This document shows positions 10,202-38,848 of a stretch of 64,000 nucleotides of DNA, piece after piece. Made by a program: the position numbers and the translations under genes. The notes under the pieces were generated by a model. That model was not told where the DNA came from and did not search any database. It saw only the letters and a list, made by a program, of their open reading frames with translations. Positions within the stretch are counted from its first letter, which is position 1. The number at the start of each line of letters is the position of its first letter. The DNA is from Balanoglossus misakiensis (Eukaryota; Animalia; Hemichordata). Location: contig CM082593.2 of NCBI GenBank assembly GCA_040954595.2, positions 6,270,172 to 6,334,171 on the forward strand. Reading direction: 5' to 3'.

Positions 10202-10423
<222 letters not shown>

Positions 10424-16700: not shown

Positions 16701-19700
16701 CACTGACTTGTTCAATTCTGCCTTCCAGGACTTGATTGAGAAAGTGATGATTCTCAAACGAGCGGTCGAGTTGACCAAGGGACGGGGCGCAGACACCAGC
16801 AGCCGTGGTCTAGCCAATAAACTTAGTGAATATGCCAAGCTGTTAGCGGCTCAAGGTAGCCTAGCAACAGCCATGCAGTATCTGGGAGAATCGCAGGAGG
16901 TAAAATAGATAGGGCTTTGTGAATGAATGAATGAATGAATGAATATATGTGTGTGTGTATTTATGGTTGTATGTATATATGTTTGTATGTAAATATGTAT
17001 GTATGTGTGTATGTACATGTATGTGTGTATGTATGTATGTATGTATGTGTATGTACATGTATGTATATCTGTAATGTATGTATGTATGTATGTATGTATG
17101 CATGCGTGTATGTATGTATGTATCAGTGTATGAATGAAATACCAAATAATTGAATTTGTAAAATATGTCAAGGTTCAAATGACCTCCAGTTGCTGATTTC
17201 CGTGTTTAAATCCGCTCCTTCATGATTGTTCTTTCAGCAATCCATCTCGGAATTGCGGGATCGTCTCTACAAGGCCCAAGGAGATGCGGTGTCAAATCTT
17301 CCGGAACCACCCTTTCCGTTCAAGAGAGTATCAGTCCGGGATAAACCTGAACCGACTCCAAGTCCAACACCTGTGCAGACAACACAACAACAACAGTATC
17401 AACAGGTAGGCATGATAACAATATACATAGTAATAGCTTACATTCTCATCTGCAAACACTTTGTAAATTTTTGTAGGATCTGCAGTGCATTGTTTTGGAA
17501 ATTGAATTCATTGTGGATTTTGCTGTTGATCTGTGCCATGCTGTCTCCAGATTGAACTATGACCCTTACTGACCTAAAAACTTTGATTCACACACAGGGC
17601 GTTGGAGTGAATTCTTTCCAGACGTCAACTGTAACGAGTAGTCAATACGCTGCAACCCAGGTGACAACGCAAGCCAGGCCGCAGCAGCGACAACCGCAAC
17701 AACAGTACTTCAACTACGACGACCAGATCGCCAATCAACCGGCCGGGGCGTACGAGACCACGCCCAAAGCAGCGGAGACCGCCGCCACCACCACGAATAT
17801 TTACTCAAAGCAGGGCGGGTTCGGGAAGTACCCGCAGTACCCGCAGAGCACCCTCACGCAGGGCTACAGCTACCCGGCCCACCAGGCCGGCTACAGCCAG
17901 GCCGGGTACGGCCAGTACGGACAGGGTACCACCACTGGTGGTGGTCCCGCCTCCGCCAACTACGGTGGCACGCCCAGTAGCTACAACACCAACACCACCG
18001 CCACCGCCAGTCAGCCCTACATGACCACCGGGATGGGCGCTGGCGGCGGTTACGGCCAACCGGCGGTGAGCACGCCAGGTGCGCCCAATATGGCCGGGCA
18101 GACAGGTGCGCCGGTGGTGGAGCCTCACGCAGCCATGGGGGCTGATTCGGCGCCTGGCTGGAATGATCCGCCATTGGTCAGATCCAAAAAGGTATGCGCT
18201 GTTTCGTTGTCGCTTATCGCAAGGTAGTGCGGTCAAAATGTCAGATAACGTCAGCACATCTTGTATGTACAAGTATAGCTGTATATTTATCCATTTACAC
18301 CAGTTATGCGCATCTTATGGTGGTACAGGCTGTATGATTTGTAAGAATTTTGCAATTTGCATTTTATTTCCGACATAAATTACCATCAATGAATGTTATG
18401 ATTTCACTATTTCTGGCCACATCGCAGCCTTCAATATCAGAAGCTTCTCTATCCATTGTAAATCACTTCTTTTTTTGAACCGTCCAATTTCCAGCCGGCA
18501 CCGGCCAAACAGCAGTACGTCGCCCCGGAGCCGATCACCACGCCCATATTCGGCGTCCCCCAAGAGGAGGTGCCCTCCCCGCCGGGCGTCGTCAACCAGG
18601 ACGCGCCCGGTGCACCCACGCCCTACGGACAACCCTCACAGGTATACAACCCAAGTGTTTACCAACCACAACAACATCAACAACAACAAAACACACCAGC
18701 AATTATTCCTCCTACTCCAATGTCTCCTACGTCAAGAACGCAGGTAACACCTCGGAAACGCGGAGAAATCTGGCAAAAGCTGAGAAAAAAGCAGGACTGT
18801 GCACTGTGTATACCCTAACAAGTTGATGTTCTGTCCTCTTAATCTTACTCAGGTTATCCTGTACAATAGTACAGTCCTCCATTTTAATGCAACTAAAACC
18901 AGTATTCACTAATCCAATAACCGTCATCTGTGTTACTGTAACCTGCTTCTTTTCTTTGCTTTTGCACTGTGTTTCTCTTCGTTTTTCTAACAAATCTAAC
19001 TTGTATTTTACTTTCTGGTATTAAATGCTAATGTAGCTATTTATTTTCCTAATGTAATGTAACTCACTTTGTATTTGTAACATGTACAGTGATTTGCTCG
19101 AGTGTGTGGTAACTGTCTTCCAGAATATAAATAGTTGGTGCACTTTATTGCTGATACAGAAAACATGTGCATAGTCTCAATACAAGAGGTGTGCTTGTAC
19201 AACCGATGCATGTACAGTTGCAGTACAGAGCATACACACACCTGGCCAAGAATCGTACCCACTGAAAAGTCGTTCTCTGTTTCAGCCGAGCCAACCGGAA
19301 CCTGAGCCCCCAAAGGAGAAGCCCCCAATCCCATCAGAACACCAAGTCTTGAGCGATACCTTTGACGGCTTAACCCAGAGATGTAGTAATGCTGCCAAAA
19401 ATCCTGTGAGTTCATTTACTTTGTTTTGTTAGCATTATTTCAGCTGGTGATCAATGACCAGTACATTAAACATTTCTGTAGTTAGTGTACTAGGAAGGTT
19501 TTTTCATGAAGTTGATATATTTTCTTTTTTTTATCCGCAGCAAATGAAGAGGAAACTAGATGATGTCAATAAAAGATTGAATGCACTGTACGATAAACTT
19601 AGAGAAAACGCTGTAAGTATTATACAAGCCAGGTTATTTGCTGAGATGCTCGTGTCCAGTTTTCCATCTTTTTTTTCTTTTTCTTTTTTTTTTTGGGGGG

Positions 19701-20117
19701 GGGGAGCTTATTGCCTTAATGTGATGTCAATCTTTTGTACGGAAGTTGCCCCCTCCCACCAAAAAAAAAATAGGCAACTGCCCTTATGGTGGTATACCAG
19801 TTAAAACCCAGTGGATCATGAATATTTTGTCAGACAAATTCTCGACTGACTTGTTTCTGTAACTTTATGGGAAAGCTTATTTGCCAATCGAGTATGGTTC
19901 TCTGTTTTATATAATTATTTTTTTTTTACATTTTCAGTTATCACCCAATGTACTGTCAGGGCTCCATGAAATGTCACAAGCTATCAACAATTACGATTAT
20001 CAACACGGTCTGGGCGTACACCAACATATAGTGGCCAGCGCGAATTTCTCGGAAATCGGAACATTTATGCCGGGACTCAAGGTGCTGATGCAAGTGGCTA
20101 CGCAACTCAAGGTTTAA
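10719..20117 (+). CDS. SEC31: Protein transport protein Sec31 (COPII outer coat; WD40 beta-propeller, ACE1 alpha-solenoid, Pro-rich region, C-terminal helical domain), 20 coding exons
   Basis: Exons read with phase-consistent splice sites: 10719-10831, 11511-11751, 11936-12073, 12302-12442, 12787-12929, 13302-13575, 13821-13949, 14283-14513, 14735-14971, 15205-15328, 15465-15643, 15847-15973, 16172-16320, 16729-16899, 17238-17405, 17598-18191, 18495-18743, 19286-19405, 19541-19612, 19938-20117. Characteristic Sec31 peptides: [130 protein letters not shown]. Confidence 0.97.
13006..13240. mobile_element. 235-bp MITE with TTAA target-site duplication (Kolobok-like, non-autonomous) in a SEC31 intron
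   Basis: TIR core AAGGGGTCGTCGCGCCGCGT / ACGCGGCGCGACGACCCCTT, with TTAA at 13002-13005 and 13241-13244. Superfamily inferred from the TTAA TSD and purine-purine termini. Confidence 0.75.
15675..15750. repeat. (TG)n/(TC)n compound microsatellite
   Basis: Read directly; intronic. Confidence 0.85.
16917..17137. repeat. (ATGA)n/(TATG)n degenerate microsatellite
   Basis: Read directly; intronic. Confidence 0.9.
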
Positions 20118-21297
20118 CCCGTGTCACTCCATCCACCCCCATTTCACGATGGTTTGGTCCAAATTCGCCTTTGTTAACAATGGAATTGGGTGGAACTATT
20201 GTGGTGTATGGGGGTTAAGTGCAGGTTACCTTGCGACTTAGGGTTTCACTTTACTGGTATCTACTGATACGTGGCTACTCTGATCGTGATAATGGACCAT
20301 ATTTCGCAAAAATCCTGTAATGAAATATTTTTTCCTTTGAGGCAATTCTTTGACATGAAAGTACAGTGTAATTGAATCTGTGTCCAATTCTTCGGATAAG
20401 CGTGTTGGTGGCAGATCTCGGCCGAAGTCAATGTTATCTTCTGTCTGACTCAAAAAGTCAAATTTGACTCAAAAGTAGTTGTTCTGAAAATGCAGTCAGT
20501 GAAAATCCACAGAATTTATCTGCATCCAAGATAAAATACAAATTTTACAAAATATTTGTAAATATTAATTAGATACGCTGTCTTTATTGAGATAGTTAGA
20601 CCCTGTCAAGCACTTCACTTCGTCTATTTTCACTTTTAATTCATAGTCGCGTAAGAAAAGTACAGATGTGTTTATTTTTATTGTGCAAGTTTAGGTTTTT
20701 GGACCGTATTTGCGTAGGGTTTGATAATCACAAAAGAACAGTCTTCAGGAAGCAACACTTCCAGTCTCTGCAGTTCTTCAAGGATATAAATGTGATGATT
20801 ATGATTTTATACTTCTTTTGAAAGTATGATAGTAAGAAATTGGAACTTGCCTTTCAAGAGCCGAAAAACTGCAATGACTATCAAATTTGTAAGTTCCATT
20901 CGGCCAGTAAGTTTCCCAGACTCCCATCATTACAGTCAAAGAAAAGTTGCAAGAAATATTTATTTTTAATCGCACTTTTTCCTTCAAGTATATTTCAAAC
21001 ATAACAAGAAGTGGTCGCCATGGACACACATTCACAACATAGGACATTCCAACCAGTGACATTGCCCGACGAAAACATTTTATTTTGTAAAATTGCAGAT
21101 GATGTATTCCCAATTTTTGCCATGTAGTAACATATGGCATATTAAAAAATCTTTCTCGAAATACTTGGTGTCTGTGTCTTTTACAATGATTGCAGTGTGA
21201 AAACCACACTGTCTGGTGTTATGGCAGAACAGACTCCATGACCTCTGCGTACAATCTGTGCTGTATGGCAGTTATTTTTATAAGTAGTGGGTGTATT

Positions 21298-21460
21298 TAG
21301 ACTCTCTCACAGCCCCTCTCGCCGTCCATGCAGGCTTATAGTCTGATTGCATGTGTGAAGGTTCGCTACACAACACCATATGGGGCTTCTCCTTTGCTAA
21401 ACGGTTGAGGGCGCATCAGTGAAGAGCCTTGTAGCGAACCGTGGGCTGTGAAAGAGTCTA
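21298..21460. mobile_element. 163-bp MITE with TAG...CTA termini and a 10-bp TSD (Academ/AcademH-like by termini)
   Basis: TIR TAGACTCTCTCACAGCCC / GGGCTGTGAAAGAGTCTA. Perfect direct repeat TGGGTGTATT at 21288-21297 and 21461-21470. Inner inverted repeat GGTTCGCTACA/TGTAGCGAACC. Confidence 0.8.
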
Positions 21461-21969
21461 TGGGTGTATTCTGTGGCAGTACTTTCATAGACAGCAATCT
21501 CATGCAGTGACTCGGTGGTTATGAACGTCAACATTGTTTGATCAATATAATACCTCCTCTGAAAAAAGGGGAGTTATAAAACCCACAGTTGGCTAAGAAT
21601 GGCAGTAATTCTAATAAATTCTTTGGAGGGACGTTTGGAATATGTTTATTTTTGAGTCCTGCATGTGTTGGTGAGAGGTAATATACCAGATGGTGCCTAT
21701 TTTGCATGATACTAAATCACCGCTCTTGAGCACTAAGTCCACAATACCGACCTGGTTCCAGCACAACAATCGCTTAAACTGAACGAGGAAGTCCAGAATT
21801 AGAAATGGCAAGAGATAGCGGGTACAATAACACGTACATAAATCAATCGAGCAGACCTGTTGGACATTGTGTCATTAAGCAATTAAGAAGGAAAAAAATA
21901 ACAAAATCCACACATGCGTGTATTCTTTGGTGGGCAGGCTAATAAACTTCGAATTCCTGAAATGGCAAA

Positions 21970-22075
21970 TAGACATGACGACAGTTCCACACTGACCAAT
22001 GGACGTTGGATGCAGTTAATGTACACGCAAGTTTGTAATTAATGTAAACAGCACAACGTATATATAAAAAGAGCC
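21970..22075 (+). promoter_or_regulatory. CCAAT + TATA Pol II promoter of cassette unit 1
   Basis: ACATGACGACAG at ~21973, TGACCAATGG (CCAAT 21996) and TATAAAAAG at 22063. The same islands are conserved in unit 2 while the sequence between them has diverged. Confidence 0.7.
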
Positions 22076-22127
22076 TCCCGACTGCTCTATCGCCAGGAAC
22101 ATCACAAAGCTGCAGACACCCACGAAC

Positions 22128-22568
22128 ATGGCAGGTGGGACATTTTACCTGTGGCATTAATTTTTGCAAATAATTTGTGTCAATCTTTCAATGATCGCAG
22201 AGAATGTGTTGTTTCCACATCCTCTATCTGAACGTATACAATGAACTGAACTATTAACATATCGTTTCGTATTTTTCATTCCAGCAAACCGCGGAGATTT
22301 CCGCCTCGGGATCGAACATACAACAATCGCAGTTGCTTACCGAGATGGAATAGTGCGCGTGCGTGTACGAAAACGCAATTCAAGTCTTATGATAACGTGC
22401 TCATTAGACTTACTGCGACTGCGTATTAGAACACGCAATGCAACTCTGATGATAACTTGCCCATTAGACTATTTCACGAGAGCAGTGACTGTTTTAAGTG
22501 TAAGAACGATGAGAATGATCCGAGGTTTGCTGCTGTGGGCATGGTATATTGACAATAACGTAAGATAA
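22128..22568 (+). CDS. Unrecognised 96-aa Arg-rich small protein with an internal 19-aa repeat (cassette unit 1), two exons 22128-22134 and 22285-22568
   Basis: AAC-ATG-GCA-G|GTGGGA donor and TTTTTCATTCCAG acceptor. The spliced frame is open: MAANRGDFRLGIEHTTIAVAYRDGIVRVRVRKRNSSLMITCSLDLLRLRIRTRNATLMITCPLDYFTRAVTVLSVRTMRMIRGLLLWAWYIDNNVR. The unit 2 paralog differs by frame-preserving indels and by synonymous and missense substitutions. Confidence 0.7.
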
Positions 22569-22606
22569 AAAGACAATCGAAACCGGAAAGGACACGAAAA
22601 TTTGTC

Positions 22607-22763
22607 CCCTATCATTGGTATGTACCTTGTCGTGGTGATAGGGCAACTGGCCAGAGTCTGGTTCCCGTATTCCTCAACGTCTTAGGATCGGAAACTCTTC
22701 CATCAGTAAGACAAGCAACGGATACGTGTGACGTCAGAGACTGGCGAGACCAAATCATACCAA
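22607..22763 (+). ncRNA. HDV-like (delta-like) self-cleaving ribozyme 1A
   Basis: P1 CCCUAUC/GAUAGGG; P2 UUGGUAUG/CAUACCAA; P3 ACC/GGU; L3 UUGUCGU; P1.1 UG/CA; P4 CUGGCCAG..CUGGCGAG; J4/2 ACCAAA with the catalytic-position C at 22750. Same topology and junction lengths as the antigenomic HDV ribozyme. Confidence 0.85.
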
Positions 22764-22988
22764 GAGAGAGAAAAAGAAGTCTGCATGGATCCCTTGGAGC
22801 GACAGTAAATCACAATACCAAACGCTGACGCCAAGCCACTGGGTCAGTCGAAAAAAGAAGCAATTTTCAACCACAAACGAAAACAGACACCAACCCTGTC
22901 GACCGTCTCCAAGCCATAACCGACGTACTGTACATGTACTACGGACACAGTTAAACGCATTCATGCACACACACAGAACACCAACATT

Positions 22989-23121
22989 CCCTACCTAAGG
23001 CATGTACCTTGACGCGGTGGTAGGGCAACTAATTGGTTAGCAAAAGTTCAATGCAAGCGAAAAAAATAATTCTACAGAATCGTTACGTTTCATTTGCTAA
23101 CCAATTAGACCAAAACATGCC
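22989..23121 (+). ncRNA. HDV-like ribozyme 1B
   Basis: P1 CCCUACC/GGUAGGG; P2 GGCAUGU/ACAUGCC; P3 ACC/GGU; L3 UUGACGC; P1.1 UG/CA; 16-bp P4 CUAAUUGGUUAGCAAA/UUUGCUAACCAAUUAG; J4/2 ACCAAA (C at 23110). Confidence 0.88.
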
Positions 23122-24121
23122 GATCACATCCAAACCCCGAACACGAACTTCAGAAGTACACGAGAAATGATTCATACAAATGTACGAGCGTCACCCGCTA
23201 TGCCACGTACATATAGGCTTATATTACACCAATATGTATTTTATTAAAAATCATTAACAAGATTAGAGTTACAGTAAATATACCCTGCATGTTCCACACG
23301 TCCATCTAACCATGTAAGCACACAAGACGCCCAAATGGCAGGCTGGCATAGCGCATACTGCAAAACGGGCGCACGAACATGTAGCCACAGAAAACTGGTT
23401 CTTCGCGATCTCATATTTTTCTGTCAAAGTCTGCTCCTTTGCGGCAACGGCTACTGCGTTCGTGGAACGGAAACAAAGCCCTAGCTCACGTGAATGCACA
23501 ACAAGGAACAAAAGTTTGCCGGACTGTTCATATCATGGCAGATGACTTAACGGCCGACACTGGGGTGACATCACACAGGTTTATTTGGCCCCGCCCATTA
23601 AACAATAGGTCTTCTTTTCAAACGCAAAACAAACGAAATGTCACAGCCTGGGCACGCTGGACATTCACCTCAGACACCCATAGAACCTTCTGGAAAGCCC
23701 CGAAAAGTTGAAGATTTACCAAAATAGTCCTTAAAAATCAGTGGAAAAACCCTGGACGTATATTGACCATTTTATTTGCATATCTGGGGCAGCTGACAAA
23801 TAGGTCTTTGTTTACGCCCCAACAACGAGAAATAAAGATTTTGTGAAGTATGAAGTATTTTAATACGGGCGCATGGTATGTCGATACAATAGGTCTAGGT
23901 ATGTGCACAAGAACAGTGGGTCGTAAAATACACTATTTTATACTTGTTTATGTGTGTCTGTAATTTTGTTTGTCTGTCATCTTTAACTTCTTGCACTGCG
24001 GCTGATCGACACTGAGGTATATGACAAATCGAAAATAATGTAAAATGTGAACACTAAATTATAGACAAGAAGACGTCTAACCTATCCAAGCATTTTATCC
24101 AAGCATTGTAATCAAGTGTAT

Positions 24122-24125
24122 GAGA

Positions 24126-24188
<63 letters not shown>

Positions 24189-24204
24189 AGAGAGAGAGAG
24201 AGAG
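24122..24204. repeat. (GA)n microsatellite
   Basis: Read directly. Confidence 0.95.
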
Positions 24205-24289
24205 TCGGTCAGACAGACAGAGAAATAGACAGACATATCTTGGGTCGTGCTTTGAGTCATGAGTGTGTTCAATACAAACGGTTGACAAG

Positions 24290-24392
24290 TAAACATGACG
24301 ACAGCCTCGGGCAGGCCCGCACATTGACCAATGGATGATGGCTACTGAAACAGCAATGCGCACGCAAGTACAGCACAACGTATAAAAAGAGC
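24290..24392 (+). promoter_or_regulatory. CCAAT + TATA Pol II promoter of cassette unit 2
   Basis: ACATGACGACAG at ~24293, TGACCAATGG (CCAAT 24328), TATAAAAAG at 24381. Confidence 0.7.
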
Positions 24393-24445
24393 CTCCCGAC
24401 TGCTCTATCGTCAGGTAGTCGGAACATCACAAAGCTACAGACACC

Positions 24446-24847
24446 ATGAGCATCGCAGGTGAGGCATTTTACCTATGGCATTTGCAAATAATTTGCGTTG
24501 ATCTTTCTATTCAATGATCACAGAGAATTTGCTGTCGCCAAATCCTCTGTCTGAATGTACATGGACTGAATCAGTTCGACTCTTTTATTCCAGCAAACCT
24601 CACAGATTTTCTCCGACACACGACGATAACGGTTGTTTACCAGGATGGAGAAGTGCGTGTGCGTGTACGAAAACACAATTTGACTCTTCTTATGATAACT
24701 TGCTCCTTTGACTTTCTGCGACTGCGTATTAGAACACACAACGCAACTCTGATGATAATTTGTCCATTGGACTATTTCACGAGGGCAGTGACTGTTTCAA
24801 GAGTACAAGCGATGCGAATGATTCGAGGTTTGCTGCGGTGGGTATAA
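24446..24847 (+). CDS. Unrecognised 88-aa Arg-rich small protein (cassette unit 2 paralog), two exons 24446-24458 and 24594-24847
   Basis: ACC-ATG-AGC-ATC-GCA-G|GTGAGG donor and TCTTTTATTCCAG acceptor. The spliced frame is open: MSIAANLTDFLRHTTITVVYQDGEVRVRVRKHNLTLLMITCSFDFLRLRIRTHNATLMIICPLDYFTRAVTVSRVQAMRMIRGLLRWV. Confidence 0.7.
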
Positions 24848-25009
24848 TAGTGTCAGATAAGGAGACATTCGAGCTTCATAAAGATGTGAAGCCAGATAGC
24901 CAGGGCGGTTCCGTATGATTTCCATGTGCATGGTAACGGGCTACGGCCTGCACCAACTCCATCAACATATGTCTCTATCTACCTCCGTGTACAATCAGGA
25001 AGGACAATC

Positions 25010-25521
25010 ATCGCTATCCTAAGCTGAACAACAAAAAAAAAACTCGAAAAAAAGACCCCTGTCATGGGTCCCTTGTTTACGATAACGAAATCGAAACAAA
25101 AAAAAAATCGCTACCCGAAGCGGAACAACAAAAAAACACGAAAAAAAAAAACCCTGTCATGGGTCCCTTGTTTACGATAACGAAATCGAAACAAAACAAA
25201 TCGCTACCCGAAGCGGAACAACAAAAAACACGAAAAAAAAACCCTGTATCGGTCCGTTGTTTACGATAAACGAAATCGAAACAACAAAAAAATCGGTACC
25301 CTAAGCTGAACAACAAAAAAAACACGAAAAAAAGACCCCTGTCATGGGTCCCTTGTTTACGATATAGAAATCGAAACAAAACAAATCGCTACCCGAAGCG
25401 GAACAACAAAAAACACGAAAAAAAAAACCCTGTATCGGTCCGTTGTTTACGATAAACGAAATCGAAACAACAAAAAAATCGGTACCCTAAGCTGAACAAA
25501 AAAAAAACACGAAAAAAAGAC
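25010..25521 (+). repeat. A-rich minisatellite, ~90-95 bp period, ~5.5 copies, running into ribozyme 2A
   Basis: CCCTGT(C/A) recurs at 25057, 25152, 25242, 25337 and 25428. The next position in register is CCCTATC at 25522, the ribozyme P1. Confidence 0.92.
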
Positions 25522-25678
25522 CCCTATCATTGGTATGTACCTTGTCGTGGTGATAGGGCAACTGGCCAGAGTCTGGTTCCCGTATTCTTCAACGTCTTAG
25601 GATCGGAAGTTCTTCCATCAGTAAAACAAGCAACGGATACGTGTGACGTCAGAGACTGGCGAGACCAAATCATACCAA
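25522..25678 (+). ncRNA. HDV-like ribozyme 2A
   Basis: Core identical to 1A; differences are confined to the P4 insert. Catalytic-position C at 25665. Confidence 0.85.
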
Positions 25679-25901
25679 GAAAGAGAAAAAGAAGTCTGCA
25701 TGGATCCCTTGGAGCGACAGTAAACCACACTACCAAACGCTAACGCCAAGCCACTGGGTCAGTCGAAAAGAAGCAATTTCCAACCACAAACGAAAACAGA
25801 CACCAACCCTGTCGACCGTCTCCAAGCCATAACCGACGTACTGTACATGTACTACGGACACAGTAAGACGCATTCATGCACACAGACAGAACACCAACAT
25901 T

Positions 25902-26043
25902 CCCTACCTACGGCATGTACCTTGACGCGGTGGTAGGGCAACTAATTGGTTAGCAAAAGTTCAATGCAATTGAAGTGAAAAAAAAAATAATTCTACAAAA
26001 TCGTTACGTTTCATTTGCTAACCAATTAGACCAAAGCATGCCG
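25902..26043 (+). ncRNA. HDV-like ribozyme 2B
   Basis: As 1B. P2 is CGGCAUGU/GCAUGCCG (one extra C-G pair and a U-G wobble). Catalytic-position C at 26031. Confidence 0.88.
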
Positions 26044-26989
26044 ATCACATTCAAACCCCGAACACGAACTTCAGAAGTACACGAGAAATGTTTCATACGA
26101 ATGTACGAGCGTCACCCGCTATGCCACGTACATATAGGCTTATATTACACCAAGATGTATTTTATTAAAAATTATTAACAAGATTAGAGTTACAGTAAAT
26201 ATACCCTGCATGTTCCACACGTTCATCTAACCATGTAAGCACACAAGACGCCCAAATGGCAGCATAGCGCATACTGCAAAACGGGCGCACGAACATGCAG
26301 CCACAGAAAACGACCGGTTCTTTACGATCTCATATTTTTCTGTCAAAATCTGCTCCTTTGCGGCAACGGCTACTGAGTTCGTGGAACGGAAACAAAGCTA
26401 GAGTTGCACGAGAATGCACAACAAGGAACAAAAGTTTGCCGGACTGTTCATATATACCTATTTATGGCAGATGACTTAACGGCCGACACTGGGGTGACAT
26501 CACAGAGGTTATTTGGCTCCGCCCATTAAAAAATAGGTCTTCTTTGCAAACGCAGAAAAAAAAACGAAATGTCACAGCCTGGGCACGCTGGACATTCACC
26601 TCAGACACCCATAGAACGTTCTGGAAAGCCCCGAAAAGTTGAAGATTTATTCCACAGACCTGGGAAATTCTTGAAGATTAAATTAGCTACACATGATATT
26701 GTAAAACTCAATGTGGTGAACAGTCTCTCTGGAAACCCAAATAGTCCTTGAAAATCAGTGGAAAACCCTTAGACGTATACAATGACCATTTTATTTGCAT
26801 ATCTGGGGCAGCTGACCAATTGGTCTTTGTTTACGCCCCGACAACGATAAAGAAAGATTTTGTAATTTTGTGAAGTATGAAGTATTTAGGGGCGCATGGT
26901 ACATGTATGTCGATATAATAGGCCTATATGTGCACAAGAACAATGGGTGGTAAATTACACTATTTTATATTTTGTGTCTGTCAAATGTA

Positions 26990-26990
26990 T

Positions 26991-27056
<66 letters not shown>
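26990..27056. repeat. (GA)n microsatellite
   Basis: Read directly. Confidence 0.95.
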
Positions 27057-27059
<3 letters not shown>

Positions 27060-27235
27060 TGTATACCAAAAATGTTAAATCGATAAAAGATAGATATCTG
27101 TTGCCATGGTATCGCAGAGGAGGAAAACTTTCTCTACTTTACATCGCAGTACACGCCACATTTCTGTACAAGCATTTCGTTCGATTCTTTCTTCAACAAA
27201 ACCTGGACAAAACAGTTTTCTCAATAGACGTGTTA

Positions 27236-28370
27236 GCGCATGCGTATATAGGACAATATTCTTGATAAAAGCACGAATTTGGGCGGTTACCAGTCATAAT
27301 CAAATTGAAATGGACTGGCGAATATCAGCATAGCAGGTAAGGCGACATTTCATATGCCCCCAATTTGGTCAAAACATTTTCTTTTCTTTTGTTCTCGTTG
27401 GCCTTTCATAAATGTCACAAAATCCCGATCGCGTTATTACACTGTGATCTATATTGGTCAGAAACTGCCTCCTTCCTCCTATACCCCCCCCCCCCCCTGT
27501 ACTACCAAGTCTAAACACATGGAACTCATGATCCGACTGTGTCTTAATTTGTTTGTTTACGAATACATGGCGAGTAAATACCACCATAGCTAAAGCATAA
27601 GATTCATGATACAAATAACGACACAATCGGATCCAAAGCTCCCTGTGGTCTAAGCTTATACTGTTTCTGTGTGGCGGTAGCTAGCTATACATGTTATCTT
27701 GTTGACCGCCTGACTACAAGACGATTGTCACCTTCTTTGGAACATTGCCACGTTGACGCCATAGCTAACATTCAGATGACCTTTCGTTTTAGCTTCCAAT
27801 GAAACAGCCATTGAAATATTTTGTTGATTGCGGTCTGTCGACGTCGTTGCTAAGACAACACGGCCAAACAAGCCCAGGTGTCGCACGACATAACACCTCC
27901 ATTTAATTTTATGGCGTGAGAAAGCCGCTATTTTTCCAAATATATCTTTAAACGCGTTGTCAGGCATAGGGTCAAAATACAGAATTGGGTAGAGCGGACA
28001 GACCGTATACCTGCATATAATATTATCACGACATAACATGATAACAGTACAGAATATGGCCATAACATAACATAACACAACATAACATAACATAACATAA
28101 CATAACACAACACAACACAACACAACACAACACAACACAACACAACACAACACAACACAACACAACACAACACAACACAACACAACACAACACAACACAA
28201 CACAACACAACATAACATAACATAACATGGAGACAAAGAGACAGACAGGCGGAATAACAAGGAATACAATTTAATAATTCTTTTTCCTTTATTCTCTTTC
28301 AACTCACAGACACCAAGACGTGCACAATCGGAAAAACTTCTTTCTTTCCAACCAGCAACAAAGGATGAGC
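27236..28370 (+). pseudogene. Diverged 5' part of cassette unit 3: TATA-like box, exon 1 homologous to units 1/2 but with ATC in place of ATG, intron 27337-28309, non-homologous exon 2
   Basis: ATCAGCATAGCAG|GTAAGG versus unit 2 ATGAGCATCGCAG|GTGAGG. CGTATATAGG at 27243. Strong acceptor TTTTTCCTTTATTCTCTTTCAACTCACAG ending at 28309. Confidence 0.45.
28061..28227. repeat. (CATAA/CACAA)n pentanucleotide microsatellite
   Basis: Read directly. Confidence 0.95.
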
Positions 28371-28619
28371 AGAATCGCGCTCAATAAAAAAAAAAAAACG
28401 AAAAAAAAAATATAATGAATCGTTTGAGGGGAAATTGACCCCGTAGATGTTTCATGTTCTCAAGCCATTTACTGCAATTGCCTTTTCATAGTGTCTTTCT
28501 TTGGGTTTAAAAAAATATTTTATTCATTTTTGTCGGCTATGCTGGTATTCGCCCATAGTAGTCCATATAATTTCACGCAATCAACCAATGTAATTGTTTA
28601 CAAAAAAATTACAAAACCG

Positions 28620-28940
28620 GCTTTAAAAAATACCTACGAAAAAAAGGAAAAAAAGAAAAGATATTGAACAAAAAAAACGATAAAAGAAAAAAACATTGTT
28701 GAACAAAAAAAATATAAAAGAAAAAAATACCTACGAAAAAAAGGAGAAAAAAGAAAATACATTGCACAAAAAAATGATCAAAGAAAAAAAAAATTGTTGA
28801 ACAAAAAAAATATAAAAGAAAAAATACCTACGAAAAAAAGGAGAAAAAAGAAAATACATTGCACAAAAAAACGATAAAAGAAAAAAACATTGTTGAACAA
28901 AAAAAAATATAAAAGAAAAAAAAGATAAAATGGAAAAAAC
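28620..28940 (+). repeat. A-rich minisatellite, ~97 bp period, ~3 copies, just upstream of ribozyme 3A
   Basis: TACCTACG recurs at 28631, 28728 and 28825. Confidence 0.88.
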
Positions 28941-28971
28941 AATGAATGTTAATTAATTCCAATCAGTGATC

Positions 28972-29956
28972 CCCTACCGTTGGTATGTACCTTGTCGTGG
29001 TGGTAGGGCAACTGACCAGTGGAGGCGAGTGGGTGTCCGAAACGCAGCGGGGCCGTGTCGGTCAGAACCGAGGAGGCGCATGTCATTGCGGTAGTCTGAC
29101 CAGTGCAGCCATGGTTTGGAGCGGCGACCCACAAAGCGTGAAGGCGTGATCTCTCGTGGTGAGTAAAGTTTAACCATAGACCCTGGTTATATGATTGAAC
29201 AGATTATTGTGGGCACTGGCGTAGATGATATAGGTAAGGGTGGACCACAGTCGCTTGTTTTCTGGGCGGTCACCCCTGCTCGGGGCCAACCGGCTATGTC
29301 GTGACTTTCTCTATGACACAGCCGATCGGCCCGGCACCACCACCTGGGAAACAAGCGACCGTGCGATGGACACAGTTAGATTCGTTGCCCATTTTTCTCT
29401 CCGGACACTCCACGCAAGCAACTCGTTGGTCAACACATGCACACCTGTATATTTATACAAACAGCTATCCGTTACAGAATCACTTTTGATACTTGACAGC
29501 TTTGAAGACACGAGTTCTGGGGTAGATGGGCGAGCGAGGATTCACCTGCAAACGATACAAAACGACGAATTTGAACACATTCGCTTTCGAGTCACCGTGG
29601 CAGCATTTTGTGAACGTCTTCGATGAACTCCCGACATTGAACACACCGTTGAGATTCAGCCAGATTGGTATATCCGTTACAGTCTATACGCAGATTGCAG
29701 TACTATAGAACATCGTGCAATGAATGCAACAGGTGGGCCGGGTCGCATAGCTGGACTTTGCACCATACATGCAACCGGACAGAACGACCAGTAGAGTTAC
29801 AACGCATTATGCGGCAGCGAAGATGGTTTAATGTGAAACGAGATCACCATTGATCGACGAAATCGAAAGAACTATAAAAGAAGAAAACCACGGACCACTG
29901 GACACGTGAATATTTCAAGCAACTGCGACTGAACTGGCCAGGCAAAACCATACCAA
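28972..29956 (+). ncRNA. HDV-like ribozyme 3A with a ~930-nt P4 insertion
   Basis: 5' half 28972-29020: P1 CCCUACC/GGUAGGG, P2 UUGGUAUG, P3 ACC/GGU, L3 UUGUCGU, CA, P4 CUGACCAGU. 3' half 29933-29956: ACUGGCCAG, J4/2 GCAAAA (C at 29943), P2 CAUACCAA. Confidence 0.78.
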
Positions 29957-30061
29957 AAATCAAAACAATCAGCAAGCAATTATATTGGAGCTGTCAAAAA
30001 AAAATGAAACGAAATAAAACACTTACACACCTACATTCTACACACACGCCACACGTACATT

Positions 30062-30258
30062 CCCTACCTATTTGGCATGTACCTTGTCGTGGTGGTGGGG
30101 CAACTAATTGGTTAGCAATGGATGGCTCAGTGTTTATATGAAAACAACAACAACAACAACAAAACGTGGAATTCAAATTTTATTACAAATTTTCAACTGA
30201 TCAGTAAGGCTTATGAAGTTAACGCGTCCCGAGCTACCAATTAGACCAAAACATGCCA
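30062..30258 (+). ncRNA. HDV-like ribozyme 3B
   Basis: P1 CCCUACC/GGUGGGG (U-G wobble); P2 UGGCAUGU/ACAUGCCA; P3 ACC/GGU; L3 UUGUCGU; P1.1 UG/CA; P4 CUAAUUGGUUAGC/GCUACCAAUUAG around an unrelated insert; J4/2 ACCAAA (C at 30246). Confidence 0.85.
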
Positions 30259-30357
30259 TAAAATCAGTAGAAACTGCGTGTGAACTCCATGTGTGGGATA
30301 GAGAAGTATAAACCTCAGTTCTGACTGAATCACTTTGATATGGTGCAAATAAGTAAT

Positions 30358-31073
30358 TTAATAAAGGAAATCACATGGTACATGGATTGGGAAGGTACTG
30401 TGGGGATTTTCACAGATATGGGGTGAAGTCGTTTCCGCAAATCCGCTCTTTAGTGAAACACACACTGTTCTGTTGGAACCAAATCTGAATATTGTATCAT
30501 TGCAGATGGCAACGGATTTGCCAGTAGGTTCACTGAGTTGCCATTTCTTGAGAAGGTGTATCTCGCCGCAGTCGGGTGAATACTGAAATATGTTTTGTGT
30601 GCACTTTTTCTTTCCTCTTCCGTGACCGCCACGGGAAAATGTCACGATGTAGATTTCCCGGTTATTGCTGAGGACTGAAGCAGTCGAACAGTCTTTTGGT
30701 AAATCTATGGGAAGCGAGCCACTCCACAGATCTTCTTCTGGGTCGAACGTCACCATGCAAGAGCGGCTGGTGATATCTCCTGGGCAGAGAACGTAGAGTT
30801 TGCCCTGGTGTGCGGCAACCTTAGTCTGAAGTGAGCCATGCAGTCTTGCTCCAGAAATGCGGCAGGGCTATCTCGGGAGGTTCGGCCACGGGCTTCCAAG
30901 AGTTTGTGGTGAAACTGTACGTGTGGTGAATTCCTTCCCCGAAAACGTACACGGATTTGCCAACACTGCCCAGAGAATACGACACTGCGTGGTTAACGCC
31001 CTGGCACTGCAAATTGAGAGGTTCAAGTTCACACCACGCGTTAGTTTTTGTGTTGTACGCCAATGGGGTGAGA
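30358..31073 (-). pseudogene. Kelch/beta-propeller-like terminal exon with a frameshift (~30825-30870)
   Basis: Kelch-blade-like motifs AYNTKTNAW, VGKSVYVFG..YSFTTNSW, VAAHQGKLYV..TFDPEEDLW, NNREIYIV..QYSPD and ICNDTIFRFG fall in two different frames. Polypyrimidine-AG acceptor at 31075-31074. AATAAA on the minus strand at 30183-30178. No upstream exons found. Confidence 0.65.
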
Positions 31074-31075
31074 CT

Positions 31076-31294
31076 AAAACGAAGGAAACCGAAGGAAAAC
31101 GAAGGACGCTGATATCTCCATATTTTTGGGCGAAGGACGAGGTTTTCTGTATGCTGGAGGCCGAAGGACAGGTTTAGCGTCGTATAAACGGCCGAAGGAC
31201 AAGTTTAGCTTCGTATAAAAGGTCGAAGGAAAGCGAAGGACACTGATTTACCCATATTTTAGTGCGAAGGACACGGTTTTCTGTATGCTGGAGG
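31076..31294. repeat. Short CGAAGGA-rich repeat with a ~134-bp duplication bordering the satellite
   Basis: CGAAGGAC..GGTTTTCTGTATGCTGGAGG at ~31100-31160 and ~31234-31294. Confidence 0.7.
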
Positions 31295-34200
31295 AAATAA
31301 GAGTTCGCACCGCTGCGGTGCAAATAAGATCATTGTAGTTATGCTGCAATATAGTGCGGTAAATTTCCGACTTTTTCGAGAACACATCGTGATGGCGAAG
31401 GGTTCAGGAAGGCTTGACTTTTACCTCAAGGTGTCAACTGATGTTGGTTCGAGACCACTTTTTTCTATTTCTTTTTTTTGTGAGAACTTTTAACGACATT
31501 GTCATTGTAATGTTTCTCAATTTCATAAATCCAATTTATTTCAATATCTACGCTGCGTTTTTTATCTGTCGGGTATAAGAAACATGCAGGGAAACTTGGT
31601 CATTTTTTTTGTCGCGGTTCACTTGGGCAAGTCTGAATACGTAGTGCTCAGGAAAGAGAAAGATAAACTCGCTAAAATCGTGTCTTTCCGTCCGCATGAC
31701 CAACCAAGGAGCGAAAAAGTCATTATTTGGGCCGTAATAAAACGTTTTTGTCGCCGAGGAGTGAATAAAGAACTGTCAGATCGTTGCGGTGCAGGGAACT
31801 CTTATTTGCACAGCAGCGGTGAACTCTTATTTGCACCGCTGCGGTGCAAATAAGAGTTCGCACCGCTGCGGTGCAAATAAGAGTTCGCACCGCTGCGGTG
31901 CAAATAAGATCATTGTAGTTATGCTGCAATATAGTGCGGTAAATTTCCGACTTTTTCGAGAACACATCGTGATGGCGAAGGGTTCAGGAAGGCTTGACTT
32001 TTACCTCAAGGTGTCAACTGATGTTGGTTCGAGACCACTTTTTTTTCTATTTTTTTTTTGTGAGAACTTTTAACGACATTGTCATTGTAATTTTTATCAC
32101 TTTCATAAATCCAATTTATTTCAATATCTACGCTGCGTTTTTTATTTGTCGGGTATAAGAAACATGCAGGGAAACTTGGTCATTTTTTTTGTCGCGGTTC
32201 ACTTGGGCAAGTCTGAATACGTAGTGCTCAGGAAAGAGAAAGATAAACTCGCTAAAATCGTGTCTTTCCGTCCGCATGACCAACCAAGGAGCGAAAAAGT
32301 CATAATTTGGGCCGTAATAAAACGTTTTTGTCGCCGAGGAGTGAATAAAGAACGGTCAGATCGTTGCGGTGCAGGGAACTCTTATTTGCACCGCAGCGGT
32401 GAACTCTTATTTGCACCGCTGCGGTGCAAATAAGAGTTCGCACCGCTGCGGTGCAAATAAGATCATTGTAGTTATGCTGCAATATAGTGCGGTAAATTTC
32501 CGACTTTTTCGAGAACACATCGTGATGGCGAAGGGTTCAGGAAGGCTTGACTTTTACCTCAAGGTGTCAACTGATGTTGGTTCGAGACCACTTTTTCTCT
32601 ATTTCTTTTTTTTGTGAGAACTTTTAACGACATTGTCATTGTATTTTTTATCAATTTCATATATCCAATTTATTTCAATATCTACGCTGCGTTTTTTATC
32701 TGTCGGGTATAAGAAACATGCAGGGGAAACTTGATCATTTTTTTGTCGCGGTTCACTTGGGCAAGTCTGAATACGTAGTGCTCAGGAAAGAGAAAGATAA
32801 ACTCGCTAAAACCGTGTCTTTCCGTCCGCATGCATGACCAACCAAGGAGCGAAAAAGTCATTATTTGGGCCGTAATAAAACGTTTTTGTCGCCGAGGAGT
32901 GAATAAAGAACGGTCAGATCGTTGCGGTGCAGGGAACTCTTATTTGCACCGCAGCGGTGAACTCTTATTTGCACCGCTGCGGTGCAAATAAGAGTTCGCA
33001 CCGCTGCGGTGCAAATAAGATCATTGTAGTTATGCTGCAATATAGTGCGGTAAATTTCCGACTTTTTCGAGAACACATCGTGCTGGCGAAGGGTTCAGGA
33101 AGGCTTGACTTTTACCTCAAGGTGTCAACTGATGTTGGTTCGAGACCACTTTTTTTCTATTTCTTTTTTTTTTGTGAGAACTTTTAACGACATTGTCATT
33201 GTAATTTTTATCAATTTCATAAATCCAATTTATTTCAATATCTACGCTGCGTTTTTCACATGTCGGGTATAAGAAACATGCAGGGAAACTTGGTCATTTT
33301 TTGTCGCGGTTCACTTGGGCAAGTCTGAATACGTAGTGCTCAGGAAAGAGAAAGATAAACTCGCTAAAACCGTGTCTTTCCGTCCGCATGACCAACCAAG
33401 GAGCGAAAAGGTCATTATTTGGGCCGTAATAAAACGTTTTTGTCGCCGAGGAGTGAATAAAGAACGGTCAGATCGTTGCGGTGCAGGGAACTCTTATTTG
33501 CACCGCAGCGGTGCAAATAAGAGTTCGCACCGCTGCGGTGCAAATAAGATCATTGTAGTTATGCTGCAATATAGAGCGGTAAATTTCCGACATTTGCGAG
33601 AACACATCGTGCTGGCGAAGGGTTCAGGAAGGCTTGACTTTTACCTCAAGGTGTCAACTGATGTTGGTTCGAGACCACTTTTTTTTCTATTTTTTTTTTG
33701 TGAGAACTTTTAACGACATTGTCATTGTAATTTTTATCAATTTCATAAATCCAATTTATTTCAATATCTACGCTGCGTTTTTTATCTGTCGGGTATAAGA
33801 AACATGCAGGGAAACTTGGTCATTTTTTGTCGCGGTTCACTTGGGCAAGTCTGAATACGTAGTGCTCAGGAAAGAGAAAGATAAACTCGCTAAAACCGTG
33901 TCTTTCCGTCCGCATGACCAACCAAGGAGCGAAAAAGTCATTATTTGGGCCGTAATAAAACGTTTTTGTCGCCGAGGAGTGAATAAAGAACGGTCAGATC
34001 GTTGCGGTGCAGGGAACTCTTATTTGCACCGCAGCGGTGAACTCTTATTTGCACCGCTGCGGTGCAAATAAGAGTTCGCACCGCTGCGGTGCAAATAAGA
34101 TCATTGTAGTTATGCTGCAATATAGTGCGGTAAATTTCCGACTTTTTCGAGAACACATCGTGATGGCGAAGGGTTCAGGAAGGCTTGACTTTTACCTCAA

Positions 34201-37200
34201 GGTGTCAACTGATGTTGGTTCGAGACCACTTTTTTTCTATTTCTTTTTTTTTTGTGAGAACTTTTAACGACATTGTCATTGTAATTTTTATCAATTTCAT
34301 AAATCCAATTTATTTCAATATCTACGCTGCGTTTTTTATCTGTCGGGTATAAGAAACATGCAGGGAAACTTGGTCATTTTTTTGTCGCGGTTCACTTGGG
34401 CAAGTCTGAATACGTAGTGCTCAGGAAAGAGAAAGATAAACTCGCTAAAACCGTGTCTTTCCGTCCGCATGACCAAACAAGGAGCGAAAAAGTCATTATT
34501 TGGGCCGTAATAAAACGTTTTTGTCGCCGAAGAGTGAATAAAGAACGGTCAGATCGTTGCGGTGCAGGGAACTCTTATTTGCACCGCAGCGGTGAACTCT
34601 TATTTGCACCGCTGCGGTGCAAATAAGAGTTCGCACCGCTGCGGTGCAAATAAGATCATTGTAGTTATGCTGCAATATAGTGCGGTAAATTTCCGACTTT
34701 TTCGAGAACACATCGTGATGGCGAAGGGTTCAGGAAGGCTTGACTTTTACCTCAAGGTGTCAACTGATGTTGGTTCGAGACCACTTTTTTTTCTATTTTT
34801 TTTTTGTGAGAACTTTTAACGACATTGTCATTGTAATTTTTATCAATTTCATAAATCCAATTTATTTCAATATCTACGCTGCGTTTTTTATCTGTCGGGT
34901 ATAAGAAACATGCAGGGAAACTTGGTCATTTTTTGTCGCGGTTCACTTGGGCAAGTCTGAATACGTAGTGCTCAGGAAAGAGAAAGATAAACTCGCTAAA
35001 ACCGTGTCTTTCCGTCCGCATGACCAACCAAGGAGCGAAAAAGTCATTATTTGGGCCGTAATAAAACGTTTTTGTCGCCGAGGAGTGAATAAAGAACGGT
35101 CAGATCGTTGCGGTGCAGGGAACTCTTATTTGCACCGCAGCGGTGAACTCTTATTTGCACCGCTGCGGTGCAAATAAGAGTTCGCACCGCTGCGGTGCAA
35201 ATAAGATCATTGTAGTTATGCTGCAATATAGTGCGGTAAATTTCCGACTTTTTCGAGAACACATCGTGATGGCGAAGGGTTCAGGAAGGCTTGACTTTTA
35301 CCTCAAGGTGTCAACTGATGTTGGTTCGAGACCACTTTTTTTCTATTTCTTTTTTTTTTGTGAGAACTTTTAACGACATTGTCATTGTAATTTTTATCAA
35401 TTTCATAAATCCAATTTATTTCAATATCTACGCTGCGTTTTTTATCTGTCGGGTATAAGAAACATGCAGGGAAACTTGGTCATTTTTTTGTCGCGGTTCA
35501 CTTGGGCAAGTCTGAATACGTAGTGCTCAGGAAAGAGAAAGATAAACTCGCTAAAACCGTGTCTTTCCGTCCGCATGACCAAACAAGGAGCGAAAAAGTC
35601 ATTATTTGGGCCGTAATAAAACGTTTTTGTCGCCGAAGAGTGAATAAAGAACGGTCAGATCGTTGCGGTGCAGGGAACTCTTATTTGCACCGCAGCGGTG
35701 AACTCTTATTTGCACCGCTGCGGTGCAAATAAGAGTTCGCACCGCTGCGGTGCAAATAAGATCATTGTAGTTATGCTGCAATATAGTGCGGTAAATTTCC
35801 GACATTTTCGAGAACACATCGTGCTGGCGAAGGGTTCAGGAAGGCTTGACTTTTACCTCAAGGTGTCAACTGATGTTGGTTCGAGACCGCTTTTTTCTAT
35901 TTCTTTTTTTTTGTGAGAACTTTTAACGACATTGTCATTGTAATTTTTATCAATTTCATAAATCCAATTTATTTCAATATCTACGCTGCGTTTTTTATCT
36001 GTCGGGTATAAGAAACATGCAGGGAAACTTGGTCATTTTTTGTCGCGGTTCACTTGGGCAAGTCTGAATACGTAGTGCTCAGGAAAGAGAAAGATAAACT
36101 CGCTAAAACCGTGTCTTTCCGTCCGCATGACCAAACAAGGAGCGAAAAAGTCATTATTTGGGCCGTAATAAAACGTTTTTGTCGCCGAAGAGTGAATAAA
36201 GAACGGTCAGATCGTTGCGGTGCAGGGAACTCTTATTTGCACCGCAGCGGTGAACTCTTATTTGCACCGCTGCGGTGCAAATAAGAGTTCGCACCGCTGC
36301 GGTGCAAATAAGATCATTGTAGTTATGCTGCAATATAGTGCGGTAAATTTCCGACATTTTCGAGAACACATCGTGCTGGCGAAGGGTTCAGGAAGGCTTG
36401 ACTTTTACCTCAAGGTGTCAACTGATGTTGGTTCGAGACCACTTTTTTTCTATTTCTTTTTTTTTGTGAGAACTTTTAACGACATTGTCATTGTAATTTT
36501 TATCAATTTCATAAACCCAATTTATTTCAATATCTACGCTGCGTTTTTTATCTGTCGGGTATAAGAAACATGCAGGGAAACTTGGTCATTTTTTTGTCGC
36601 GGTTCACTTGGGCAAGTCTGAATACGTAGTGCTCAGGAAAGAGAAAGATAAACTCGCTAAAACCGTGTCTTTCCGTCCGCATGACCAACCAAGGAGCGAA
36701 AAAGTCATTATTTGGGCCGTAATAAAACGTTTTTGTCGCCGAAGAGTGAATAAAGAACGGTCAGATCGTTGCGGTGCAGGGAACTCTTATTTGCACCGCA
36801 GCGGTGAACTCTTATTTGCACCGCTGCGGTGCAAATAAGAGTTCGCACCGCTGCGGTGCAAATAAGATCATTGTAGTTATGCTGCAATATAGTGCGGTAA
36901 ATTTCCGACATTTTCGAGAACACATCGTGATGGCGAAGGGTTCAGGAAGGCTTGACTTTTACCTCAAGGTGTCAACTGATGTTGGTTCGAGACCGCTTTT
37001 TTCTATTTCTTTTTTTTTTGTGAGAACTTTTAACGACATTGTCATTGTAATTTTTATCAATTTCATAAATCCAATTTATTTCAATATCTACGCTGCGTTT
37101 TTTATCTGTCGGGTATAAGAAACATGCAGGGAAACTTGGTCATTTTTTGTCGCGGTTCACTTGGGCAAGTCTGAATACGTAGTGCTCAGGAAAGAGAAAG

Positions 37201-38485: not shown

Positions 38486-38848
38486 TAGAATCTCACTTTG
38501 GGCTGTGATCTAGGCTATGGACATATTATTTCCTCGACCTGGTAATTTGCAAGGCCTAAAACTTGACAAAGACTCCAGGAGTCCAAATACATGTACTTCG
38601 AACTGTGATGATGGGGAATAAAATTCATATAAAGTGATGAAACGGGAATTATATCGATCGGCCAAAACATTTAAGAATCTGAAACATTCGACGCTTGTGG
38701 CGCCCTCCAGAGCCGACGTGACTGACCACATCCAACACATACTCCACCAAGAACAAGTCCCCTCTGGTAATTCATCTGTCTCTCAAGCGATAGTACATGA
38801 CATTTGGCTATTTATGAACCACTGTTGGATCACAGGCGTGCTTGAATT

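Follow-up and report, generated by a model that had tools for sequence, protein, structure and literature searches.

Paired HDV-like ribozyme folds within a likely small gene family of Balanoglossus misakiensis, one of them holding a probable intron

Introduction

Why would an animal genome carry six ribozyme folds of the hepatitis delta virus (HDV) type side by side, and what could they do there? The question is raised by a 64,000-nt stretch of the hemichordate Balanoglossus misakiensis (assembly GCA_040954595.2, contig CM082593.2, positions 6,270,172 to 6,334,171, forward strand), here called the window, in which a first-pass annotation had proposed six HDV-like ribozymes with a variant catalytic core. 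Animals have few host-retained self-cleaving ribozymes that play a part in gene expression, among them CPEB3 and Clec2. The locus is compact, and its three pairs, intact cores and a likely expressed spliced member make a cellular role of ribozymes directly testable by point mutations that switch catalysis off. The analysis below indicates that the core is known and that the unusual part is the arrangement, in which two kinds of fold (A and B) are paired in likely genes and a probable intron lies inside one A copy (A3). The reading that we tentatively prefer, with slightly less than even confidence, is that HDV-like ribozymes derived from retroposons have been kept by the host as paired cis-cutters, which would sever the capped part of a transcript from its poly(A) end. 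The first-pass annotation had not noticed the pairing, the gene context or the intron.

Results and Discussion

Six HDV-like folds in alternating order

The motif scan revealed six cores, every one on the plus strand, each of which completes P1, P2, P3, P1.1, P4 and J4/2 (Table 1). A relaxed HDV-type descriptor, composed after the folds had been seen and with family letters fixed only at L3 (U...CG(Y)) and J4/2 (C-N-A-R), matched exactly these six over both strands of the window and none in 300 dinucleotide shuffles. The span and strand proposed earlier were recovered, the sequences of P1, P3, L3, P1.1 and J4/2 were reproduced on re-tabulation, and at the level of structural modelling the six are confirmed as genuine HDV-like folds. 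It had also been expected that standard models would miss them, and the HDV family is indeed absent among the 34 Rfam matches of the window at E ≤ 1. The P4 lengths span 81–931 nt; a 931-nt P4 with a probably spliced intron in it implies that Rfam and descriptor searches limited to short P4s miss real members.

The order of the folds is A, B, A, B, A, B, and the cut sites of A and B are spaced by 382, 380 and 1090 nt in units 1, 2 and 3, respectively. A and B have only about 45 nt in common and differ in P2 and P4. Because A1/A2 and B1/B2 fall within one duplication of 93% identity (blastn), the six copies amount to about four independent sequences. Two-sided changes were found in P1 (U-A vs. 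C-G at position 6) and in P2 (U-A vs. C-G between the A and B types, and an outer pair of C-G in B2 vs. U-A in B3), so the compensatory changes previously claimed for the whole fold stand for these two helices; P1.1, P3 and C1-G37 are constant across the six copies and, as there is no variation, rest on complementarity rather than on covariation. The description of the P4 stems as unrelated had to be abandoned, since A1 and A3 have a common base of P4 and 13 nt are common to B1, B2 and B3. Between units 1 and 3, only the 5' halves of the ribozymes and about 40 nt before B can be aligned by blastn, from which it follows that the cores have outlasted their flanks.

P1.1 consists of G-C plus U-A in the window copies, and L3 reads UUG(U/A)CG(U/C) in 6/6, with the conserved starting U and the CG before the end both present; G25 is an important residue. 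The second position of J4/2 is C in all six window copies and in 3/3 tabulated loci from outside, so that the catalytic Cs assigned earlier in A1 and B1 agree with all nine tabulated sequences, and the C-N-A-A pattern is kept; a displacement of the register to the adjacent C (22751 and 23111) is conceivable. The pair at the predicted cleavage site is C-G throughout (6/6), which departs from the purine-pyrimidine pair of the original HDV-like consensus. All six 60-nt upstream flanks are poor in G (0.07–0.18 vs. 0.20). J1/2 is a single base in the A copies, next to a P2 of 8 bp, and by analogy these copies may cleave slower than the B copies; a mosquito ribozyme with a one-base J1/2 is described as having little activity (PMC4908430).

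A known core and its retroposon relatives

According to the first-pass annotation, the C1-G37 pair and the UG/CA P1.1 may define a distinct or deliberately slow HDV subclass. The failure of Rfam and the uncut A3 RNA described below would suit such a subclass, and the exact UG/CA P1.1 was not found stated in the literature examined, which did not cover Ruminski 2011 and several supplements; this exact core may have been published before for RTE ribozymes. However, a C-G cut site has been published as active: 230 fungal HDV-like variants combine a C-G pair at the cleavage site with one more base between P2 and P3, and two of them were demonstrated to cleave (PMC5640933). The Caenorhabditis briggsae ribozyme, with U-1/C1 and a weaker P1.1 of U:A and C:U, cleaves at 9.3 per min (PMC13635239, preprint). 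The window copies resemble both in the C at the cleavage site, the extra or loosely paired base between P2 and P3, a P1.1 other than CC/GG and the catalytic C in J4/2, whereas they differ in having no loop-E P4, a P1.1 of G-C plus U-A, the wide range of P4 lengths and the pairing in genes. In R2 ribozymes, the rigid positions are the catalytic C and four others only (PMC3774820), and compensatory rescue has been reported in the P1.1 element (PMC9901934).

The same core also marks the 5' ends of retroposons to the base. In the supplement of PMC5786205 (reviewed in PMC6765202), the 5' ends of RTE-clade long interspersed nuclear elements (LINEs) carry L3 TTGTCGT, a 3-bp P3 and a P1 strand of 7 nt whose last base is G, with C coming next, and the link to RTE that had been proposed in the first-pass annotation is thereby substantiated; the printed RTE copies have U at the second position of P1.1, where the window copies have A. 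Metagenomes and viruses were scanned for the core with a strict family pattern, which gave no match in either, and then with a relaxed core pattern, which gave at least 118 metagenome stretches, most of them by chance, and four viral ones. Nine of the 122 listed loci were flagged by the descriptor; three (L009, L015 and L054) were discarded as GC-rich chance matches, and the six kept represent four distinct elements (L039/L049, L011/L060, L082 and L052). For L011/L060, the P2 partner picked up by the descriptor is located beyond the element and is probably a chance match, and these loci were therefore excluded from the pair table. L039 and L060/L011 are mutually unrelated 265-nt elements resembling short interspersed nuclear elements (SINEs), with a TAAG-like tail, and they start exactly at C1. 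In these two of the four distinct elements the left target-site duplication of 13–14 bp reaches up to the base preceding C1; no convincing target-site duplication was found for L082 and L052. Because the duplications end right before C1, we read the core as one that cuts at C1 in nature. With C1 and a P1.1 other than CC/GG published as active, and with retroposons that begin at C1, the slow or distinct subclass is unsupported and in our view very improbable; the catalytic core is of a known kind and not new chemistry.

Three of these elements (L039/L049, L011/L060 and L082) are SINE-like, headed by the core and located in animal-like contigs, and L060 and L082 have body sequence in common. In L052 the core (at 3137, minus strand) forms a minimal fold that immediately precedes an ATG; the contig is densely packed with genes and looks prokaryotic or phage-like.

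Spread of the window copies as DNA

The RTE-type core motif is present at the window ribozymes. No convincing target-site duplication was found at any of the six (two 8-mers, at chance level), none of the six copies has a TAAG/GTAA tail, and no reverse transcriptase family was detected among the 12 frames scanned against Pfam; the longest stop-to-stop frame within 20500–31200 has 180 aa. Since target-site duplications and tails are absent and the duplications contain promoter and intron DNA, the window copies have spread as DNA. One could regard the pairs as a neutral relic, i.e., a head-to-tail dimer of ribozyme-headed short retroposons that landed in a gene in the distant past and was carried along by segmental duplication, its cutting being without a role. 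The core is that of RTE 5' ends and SINE-like elements, A1/A2 and B1/B2 are plain duplicates, and one related copy may have lost its catalytic C, all of which a relic would explain. It is nevertheless improbable, as there is no target-site duplication, tail or shared body, all core pairs are intact in 6/6 window copies whereas the flanks and P4 have diverged past alignment, and A3 retains P2 and the closure of P4 across 931 nt.

Three public runs of one sample (X1, X2 and X3) were compared with the window as contigs, which show presence only. Over 28940–30330 there are 13–26 contigs in X1 and X2, with a few diverged versions (copies below 80% identity are invisible here). At least three versions of part of unit 3 were found in X1/X2 (0, 12 and 19 differences in a stretch common to them), an X2 contig of 1085 nt links the 3' half of A3 to the start of B3, and loose ends of X1/X2 contigs carry further ribozyme copies with other P4s. 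The extra versions are paralogs if the sample is one diploid animal and alleles if it is pooled. Because the intron and upstream DNA are included, the extra copies arose as DNA. In a diverged X1/X2 copy, 0/16 listed substitutions in 28943–29169 hit the first 83 nt, which contain the core (chance about 7e-4 among the substitutions listed).

Gene context of units 1 and 2

A TATA-like box, followed by a short first exon, precedes each A+B pair, and the three pairs likely sit inside a small duplicated family of RNA polymerase II genes. In units 1 and 2, the short putative first exon ends at a CAG/GT donor, the acceptor is pyrimidine-rich, and the exon-1 ATG is in frame with exon 2. Between the two open reading frames (ORFs) there are indels of 9 and 3 nt, a dN/dS of 0.46 over 85 codons and 10, 14 and 20 differences at the first, second and third codon positions, a sequence pattern by which the 88–96-aa ORF is likely coding. 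It matches no Pfam family. A contig of X3 begins at 24591, the first base common to the spliced and unspliced paths of unit 2, which is a weak hint at splicing of the first intron.

A1 starts 39 nt after the stop codon of unit 1. In units 1 and 2, the stretch from the stop codon to B contains neither AATAAA nor ATTAAA, the next signals being at 23243 and 26164, and both predicted cuts fall between the stop of the ORF and the first poly(A) signal, provided that the ORFs are genuine. The predicted product of the two cuts is 22607–22988 in unit 1 (382 nt) and has 380 nt in unit 2.

Some repeats lie close to these features. A 60-nt internal duplication (22351–22470) gives a 20-aa arginine-rich repeat in the orphan ORF. 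The unit of the A-rich 95-nt tandem repeat upstream of A2 (Table 1) resembles a decayed 5' half of ribozyme A, and another A-rich tandem repeat, of 97 nt (28625–28922), lies directly upstream of A3. A bacterial promoter scan was uninformative.

Unit 3 and the probable intron inside ribozyme A3

Upstream of A, homology of unit 3 to units 1 and 2 lies below blastn detection, and features of the sequence are suggestive of it. The basal helix of the A3 P4 is predicted with pair probabilities of 0.98–0.99, both unspliced and spliced, and the interior of this P4 is no more stable than shuffles (z −0.86 for the whole insert). A 785-nt X3 contig skips exactly 29159–29499, with 218 letters on one side of the joint and no other difference from the window, and the skipped segment was likely removed by splicing. 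Neither X1 nor X2 contains the joint, and the donor is crossed unspliced in X1. X3 has 28 million letters, vs. 314–339 million in X1/X2, and its cover is patchy; from the intron joint, the small size and the patchy cover we infer that X3 is RNA. Gaps in X3 cover at B1/B2 and a drop in depth after 30002 would agree with cutting at B, but were left unused, because missing contig cover is no evidence for cutting. Within the intron there is a strong hairpin (29245–29380, z −5.7), which is retained in a diverged copy and is possibly the remnant of an inverted repeat.

The predicted A3–B3 piece has 1090 nt unspliced and 749 nt spliced. A unit of 1 kb bounded by cuts, with HDV-type ribozymes and an antigenomic-like register of J4/2, recalls an endogenised deltavirus- or viroid-like circular RNA. 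This origin is largely refuted and hardly credible, since the minus strand is without a ribozyme, the insert has no rod-like fold (by the z-score given above), there is no ORF of antigen size and a spliceosomal intron lies inside the unit.

B3 is located 44 nt past an AATAAA and 100 nt from a Kelch-like remnant on the minus strand, and all six ribozymes lie on the strand of the upstream SEC31A gene, 2.5–10 kb beyond its stop. The cutters might accordingly serve termination or insulation, breaking read-through RNA from SEC31A or from beyond their own poly(A) site before it enters the convergent Kelch-like sequence. We consider this quite improbable, given that every pair is preceded by a TATA-like box and first exon of its own, that A3 spans a spliced intron and hence is exonic, and that in units 1 and 2 the poly(A) signal comes only after the cuts.

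Table 1. Positions of the ribozymes and of associated features in the window
Feature	Position	Strand	Basis or remarks
Unit 1 promoter-like elements	CCAAT 21996–22000; TATA box 22059–22069	+	sequence; conserved in unit 2; putative function
Unit 1 likely small gene	ATG 22128; donor 22135; acceptor 22284; stop 22568	+	96 aa if spliced in silico
Ribozyme A1	22607–22763	+	predicted cut 22606/22607; catalytic C 22750; P4 z −3.1
A1–B1 spacer	22764–22988	+	one closing helix; single-stranded ends 15 and 18 nt; z −2.2
Ribozyme B1	22989–23121	+	catalytic C 23110; P4 z −5.8
Unit 2 CCAAT and TATA box	24328–24388	+	sequence
Unit 2 likely small gene	ATG 24446; donor 24459; acceptor 24593; stop 24847	+	88 aa
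A-rich 95-nt tandem repeat, 5.4 copies	25030–25534	+	takes in first bases of A2
Ribozyme A2	25522–25678	+	catalytic C 25665; near-copy of A1
Ribozyme B2	25902–26043	+	catalytic C 26031; near-copy of B1
Unit 3 putative weak TATA-like box and first-exon splice sites	TATA-like box 27264; donor 27337; acceptor 28309	+	sequence
Ribozyme A3	28972–29956	+	931-nt P4 (29011–29941); catalytic C 29943
Likely intron inside A3 P4, 341 nt, GT-AG	29159–29499	+	GTGAGT donor; pyrimidine-rich CAG acceptor
AATAAA between A3 and B3	30013–30018	+	sequence
Ribozyme B3	30062–30258	+	catalytic C 30246

Possible roles of the pairs

If the pairs are host-kept cis-cutters, transcription would start at the TATA-like boxes and the first intron would be spliced out; A would cut just 5' of its C1, and B would then cut 380–1090 nt downstream. 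The cuts in units 1 and 2 would detach the tail from the capped coding part, which would then be degraded or translated poorly. The model for this is the Clec2 hammerhead, a ribozyme of the 3' untranslated region (UTR) with an insertion of several hundred nt that lowers expression (PMC6765202, PMC2950038). Two cuts in series would make the loss of the tail fail-safe. A3 would become foldable only after about 985 nt had been transcribed (644 if spliced), which would make its cut a late one, possibly tuned by splicing, and B3 would cut 44 nt beyond the poly(A) signal.

Several observations weigh against this reading. Unit 3 has no ORF like that of units 1 and 2 (its longest ATG ORFs have 55 and 60 aa), and since it keeps the pair all the same, removal of mRNA tails cannot explain everything. 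The orphan ORF found no homolog among proteins of 51–165 aa, the range of the search; its Atlas recognition is low (best lead <0.8), its predicted fold is unusable (pLDDT 47), and its dN/dS comes from a single pair with 85 codons. Variants in the A3 P4 are not compensatory, 30 of 40 being at paired positions against a background of 0.64. X3 is labelled 'DNA?', and the intron joint rests on one contig in one run. The same spliced contig spans the predicted A3 cut site, so some uncut A3 RNA exists, in a share that contigs cannot give. Finally, one B-like loose end has A in place of C at the second position of J4/2.

The released piece itself might instead be the purpose of the pair, with the 380-nt or 749-nt piece circularised or left as a stable uncapped RNA. 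Two cuts are retained in all three units, including the one without the ORF, units 1 and 3 have kept the same roughly 40 nt ahead of B, and ACAUU forms the end of all three pieces. The A1–B1 and A2–B2 spacers are predicted to close on themselves with free ends of 14–18 nt. A would leave a 5'-OH and B a 2',3'-cyclic phosphate (end chemistry as in PMC5640933). A host ligase of the RtcB type would join the two. On the other hand, apart from the core and the 3' end the pieces of units 1 and 3 have no payload in common, there is no dedicated ligation stem, the A3–B3 spacer is unstructured (z 0.24), the AATAAA at 30013 could terminate unit 3 before B3, and no go-back joint of the circle type is present among the contig joints listed, although contigs show presence only. 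A released functional RNA is possible but unlikely in our judgment. We find doubtful the more specific proposal that the gene family excises a defined RNA by means of domesticated ribozyme pairs, as a two-ribozyme circle cassette, and that splicing gates the upstream ribozyme in one member. An H/ACA reading of the released piece was rejected: in H/ACA RNAs the ACA lies three bases from the end, whereas only two bases separate the conserved ACA here from the cut.

Other features of the window

The window has about 40% GC and its exons are short. The 3' part of a multi-exon SEC31A gene occupies about 12000–20118 on the plus strand, with an exon (13303–13575) that matches Sec31A at 1e-34. At 21298–21460 there is a repeat resembling a miniature inverted-repeat transposable element, with terminal inverted repeats and a very high summed depth in X1 and X2. 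The Kelch-like coding remnants (30361–31204, minus strand) score under the Pfam cut-offs, are convergent with B3 and continue into a satellite array (31134–38637) of about 14 tandem copies of ~555 bp, which carry internal 25–27-nt repeats and palindromes. A (TGA)n tract followed by (ATC)n at 10221–10423 forms a perfect long inverted repeat and gives rise to spurious miRNA matches, and a plus-strand frame at 58960–59274 contains a stretch that, by eye, we take to be EF-hand-like and SPARC-like.

Comparison with known systems

RTE LINEs and their short non-autonomous derivatives have a core of this kind. The window units differ from them in having no reverse transcriptase ORF, tail or target-site duplication, in carrying two ribozymes each and in having been multiplied by DNA duplications that include the promoter and intron. 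Among literature titles and abstracts, which left Ruminski 2011, Webb 2009, Webb and Luptak 2011 and Nehdi 2006 outside their coverage, no paired or intron-containing HDV-like ribozymes in host genes were found.

The discontinuous 3'-UTR hammerhead of Clec2 (PMC6765202, PMC2950038) is similar in that the cut lies between stop codon and poly(A) signal, as predicted for units 1 and 2 only, and in that its halves are hundreds of nt apart, as in A3. The window has in contrast an HDV fold, two predicted cuts per transcript, an intron in the insertion and an orphan host ORF that is missing in unit 3. CPEB3 likewise represents a host-retained HDV fold in an RNA polymerase II gene, plausibly timed against splicing; it sits in an intron, whereas the window has the intron within the ribozyme, and its ribozymes are paired and located in exons.

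Two ribozyme-like motifs per unit, with no need for a protein, are also found in retrozymes and in Leishmania SIDER2, which has two tandem Pr77 signatures and is located in 3' UTRs (PMC4035085); L1Tc (PMC3185411) and theta ribozymes (PMC10879173) are other near systems. The hammerheads of retrozymes are near-identical, whereas the window units have HDV folds of which A and B share only the short core. In SIDER2 only the first signature fits the fold (PMC4035085), and in the window both A and B keep every core pair. The unusual part of the locus is, in sum, the arrangement of A+B pairs in likely genes with a probable intron inside A3, built on a core that is already known.

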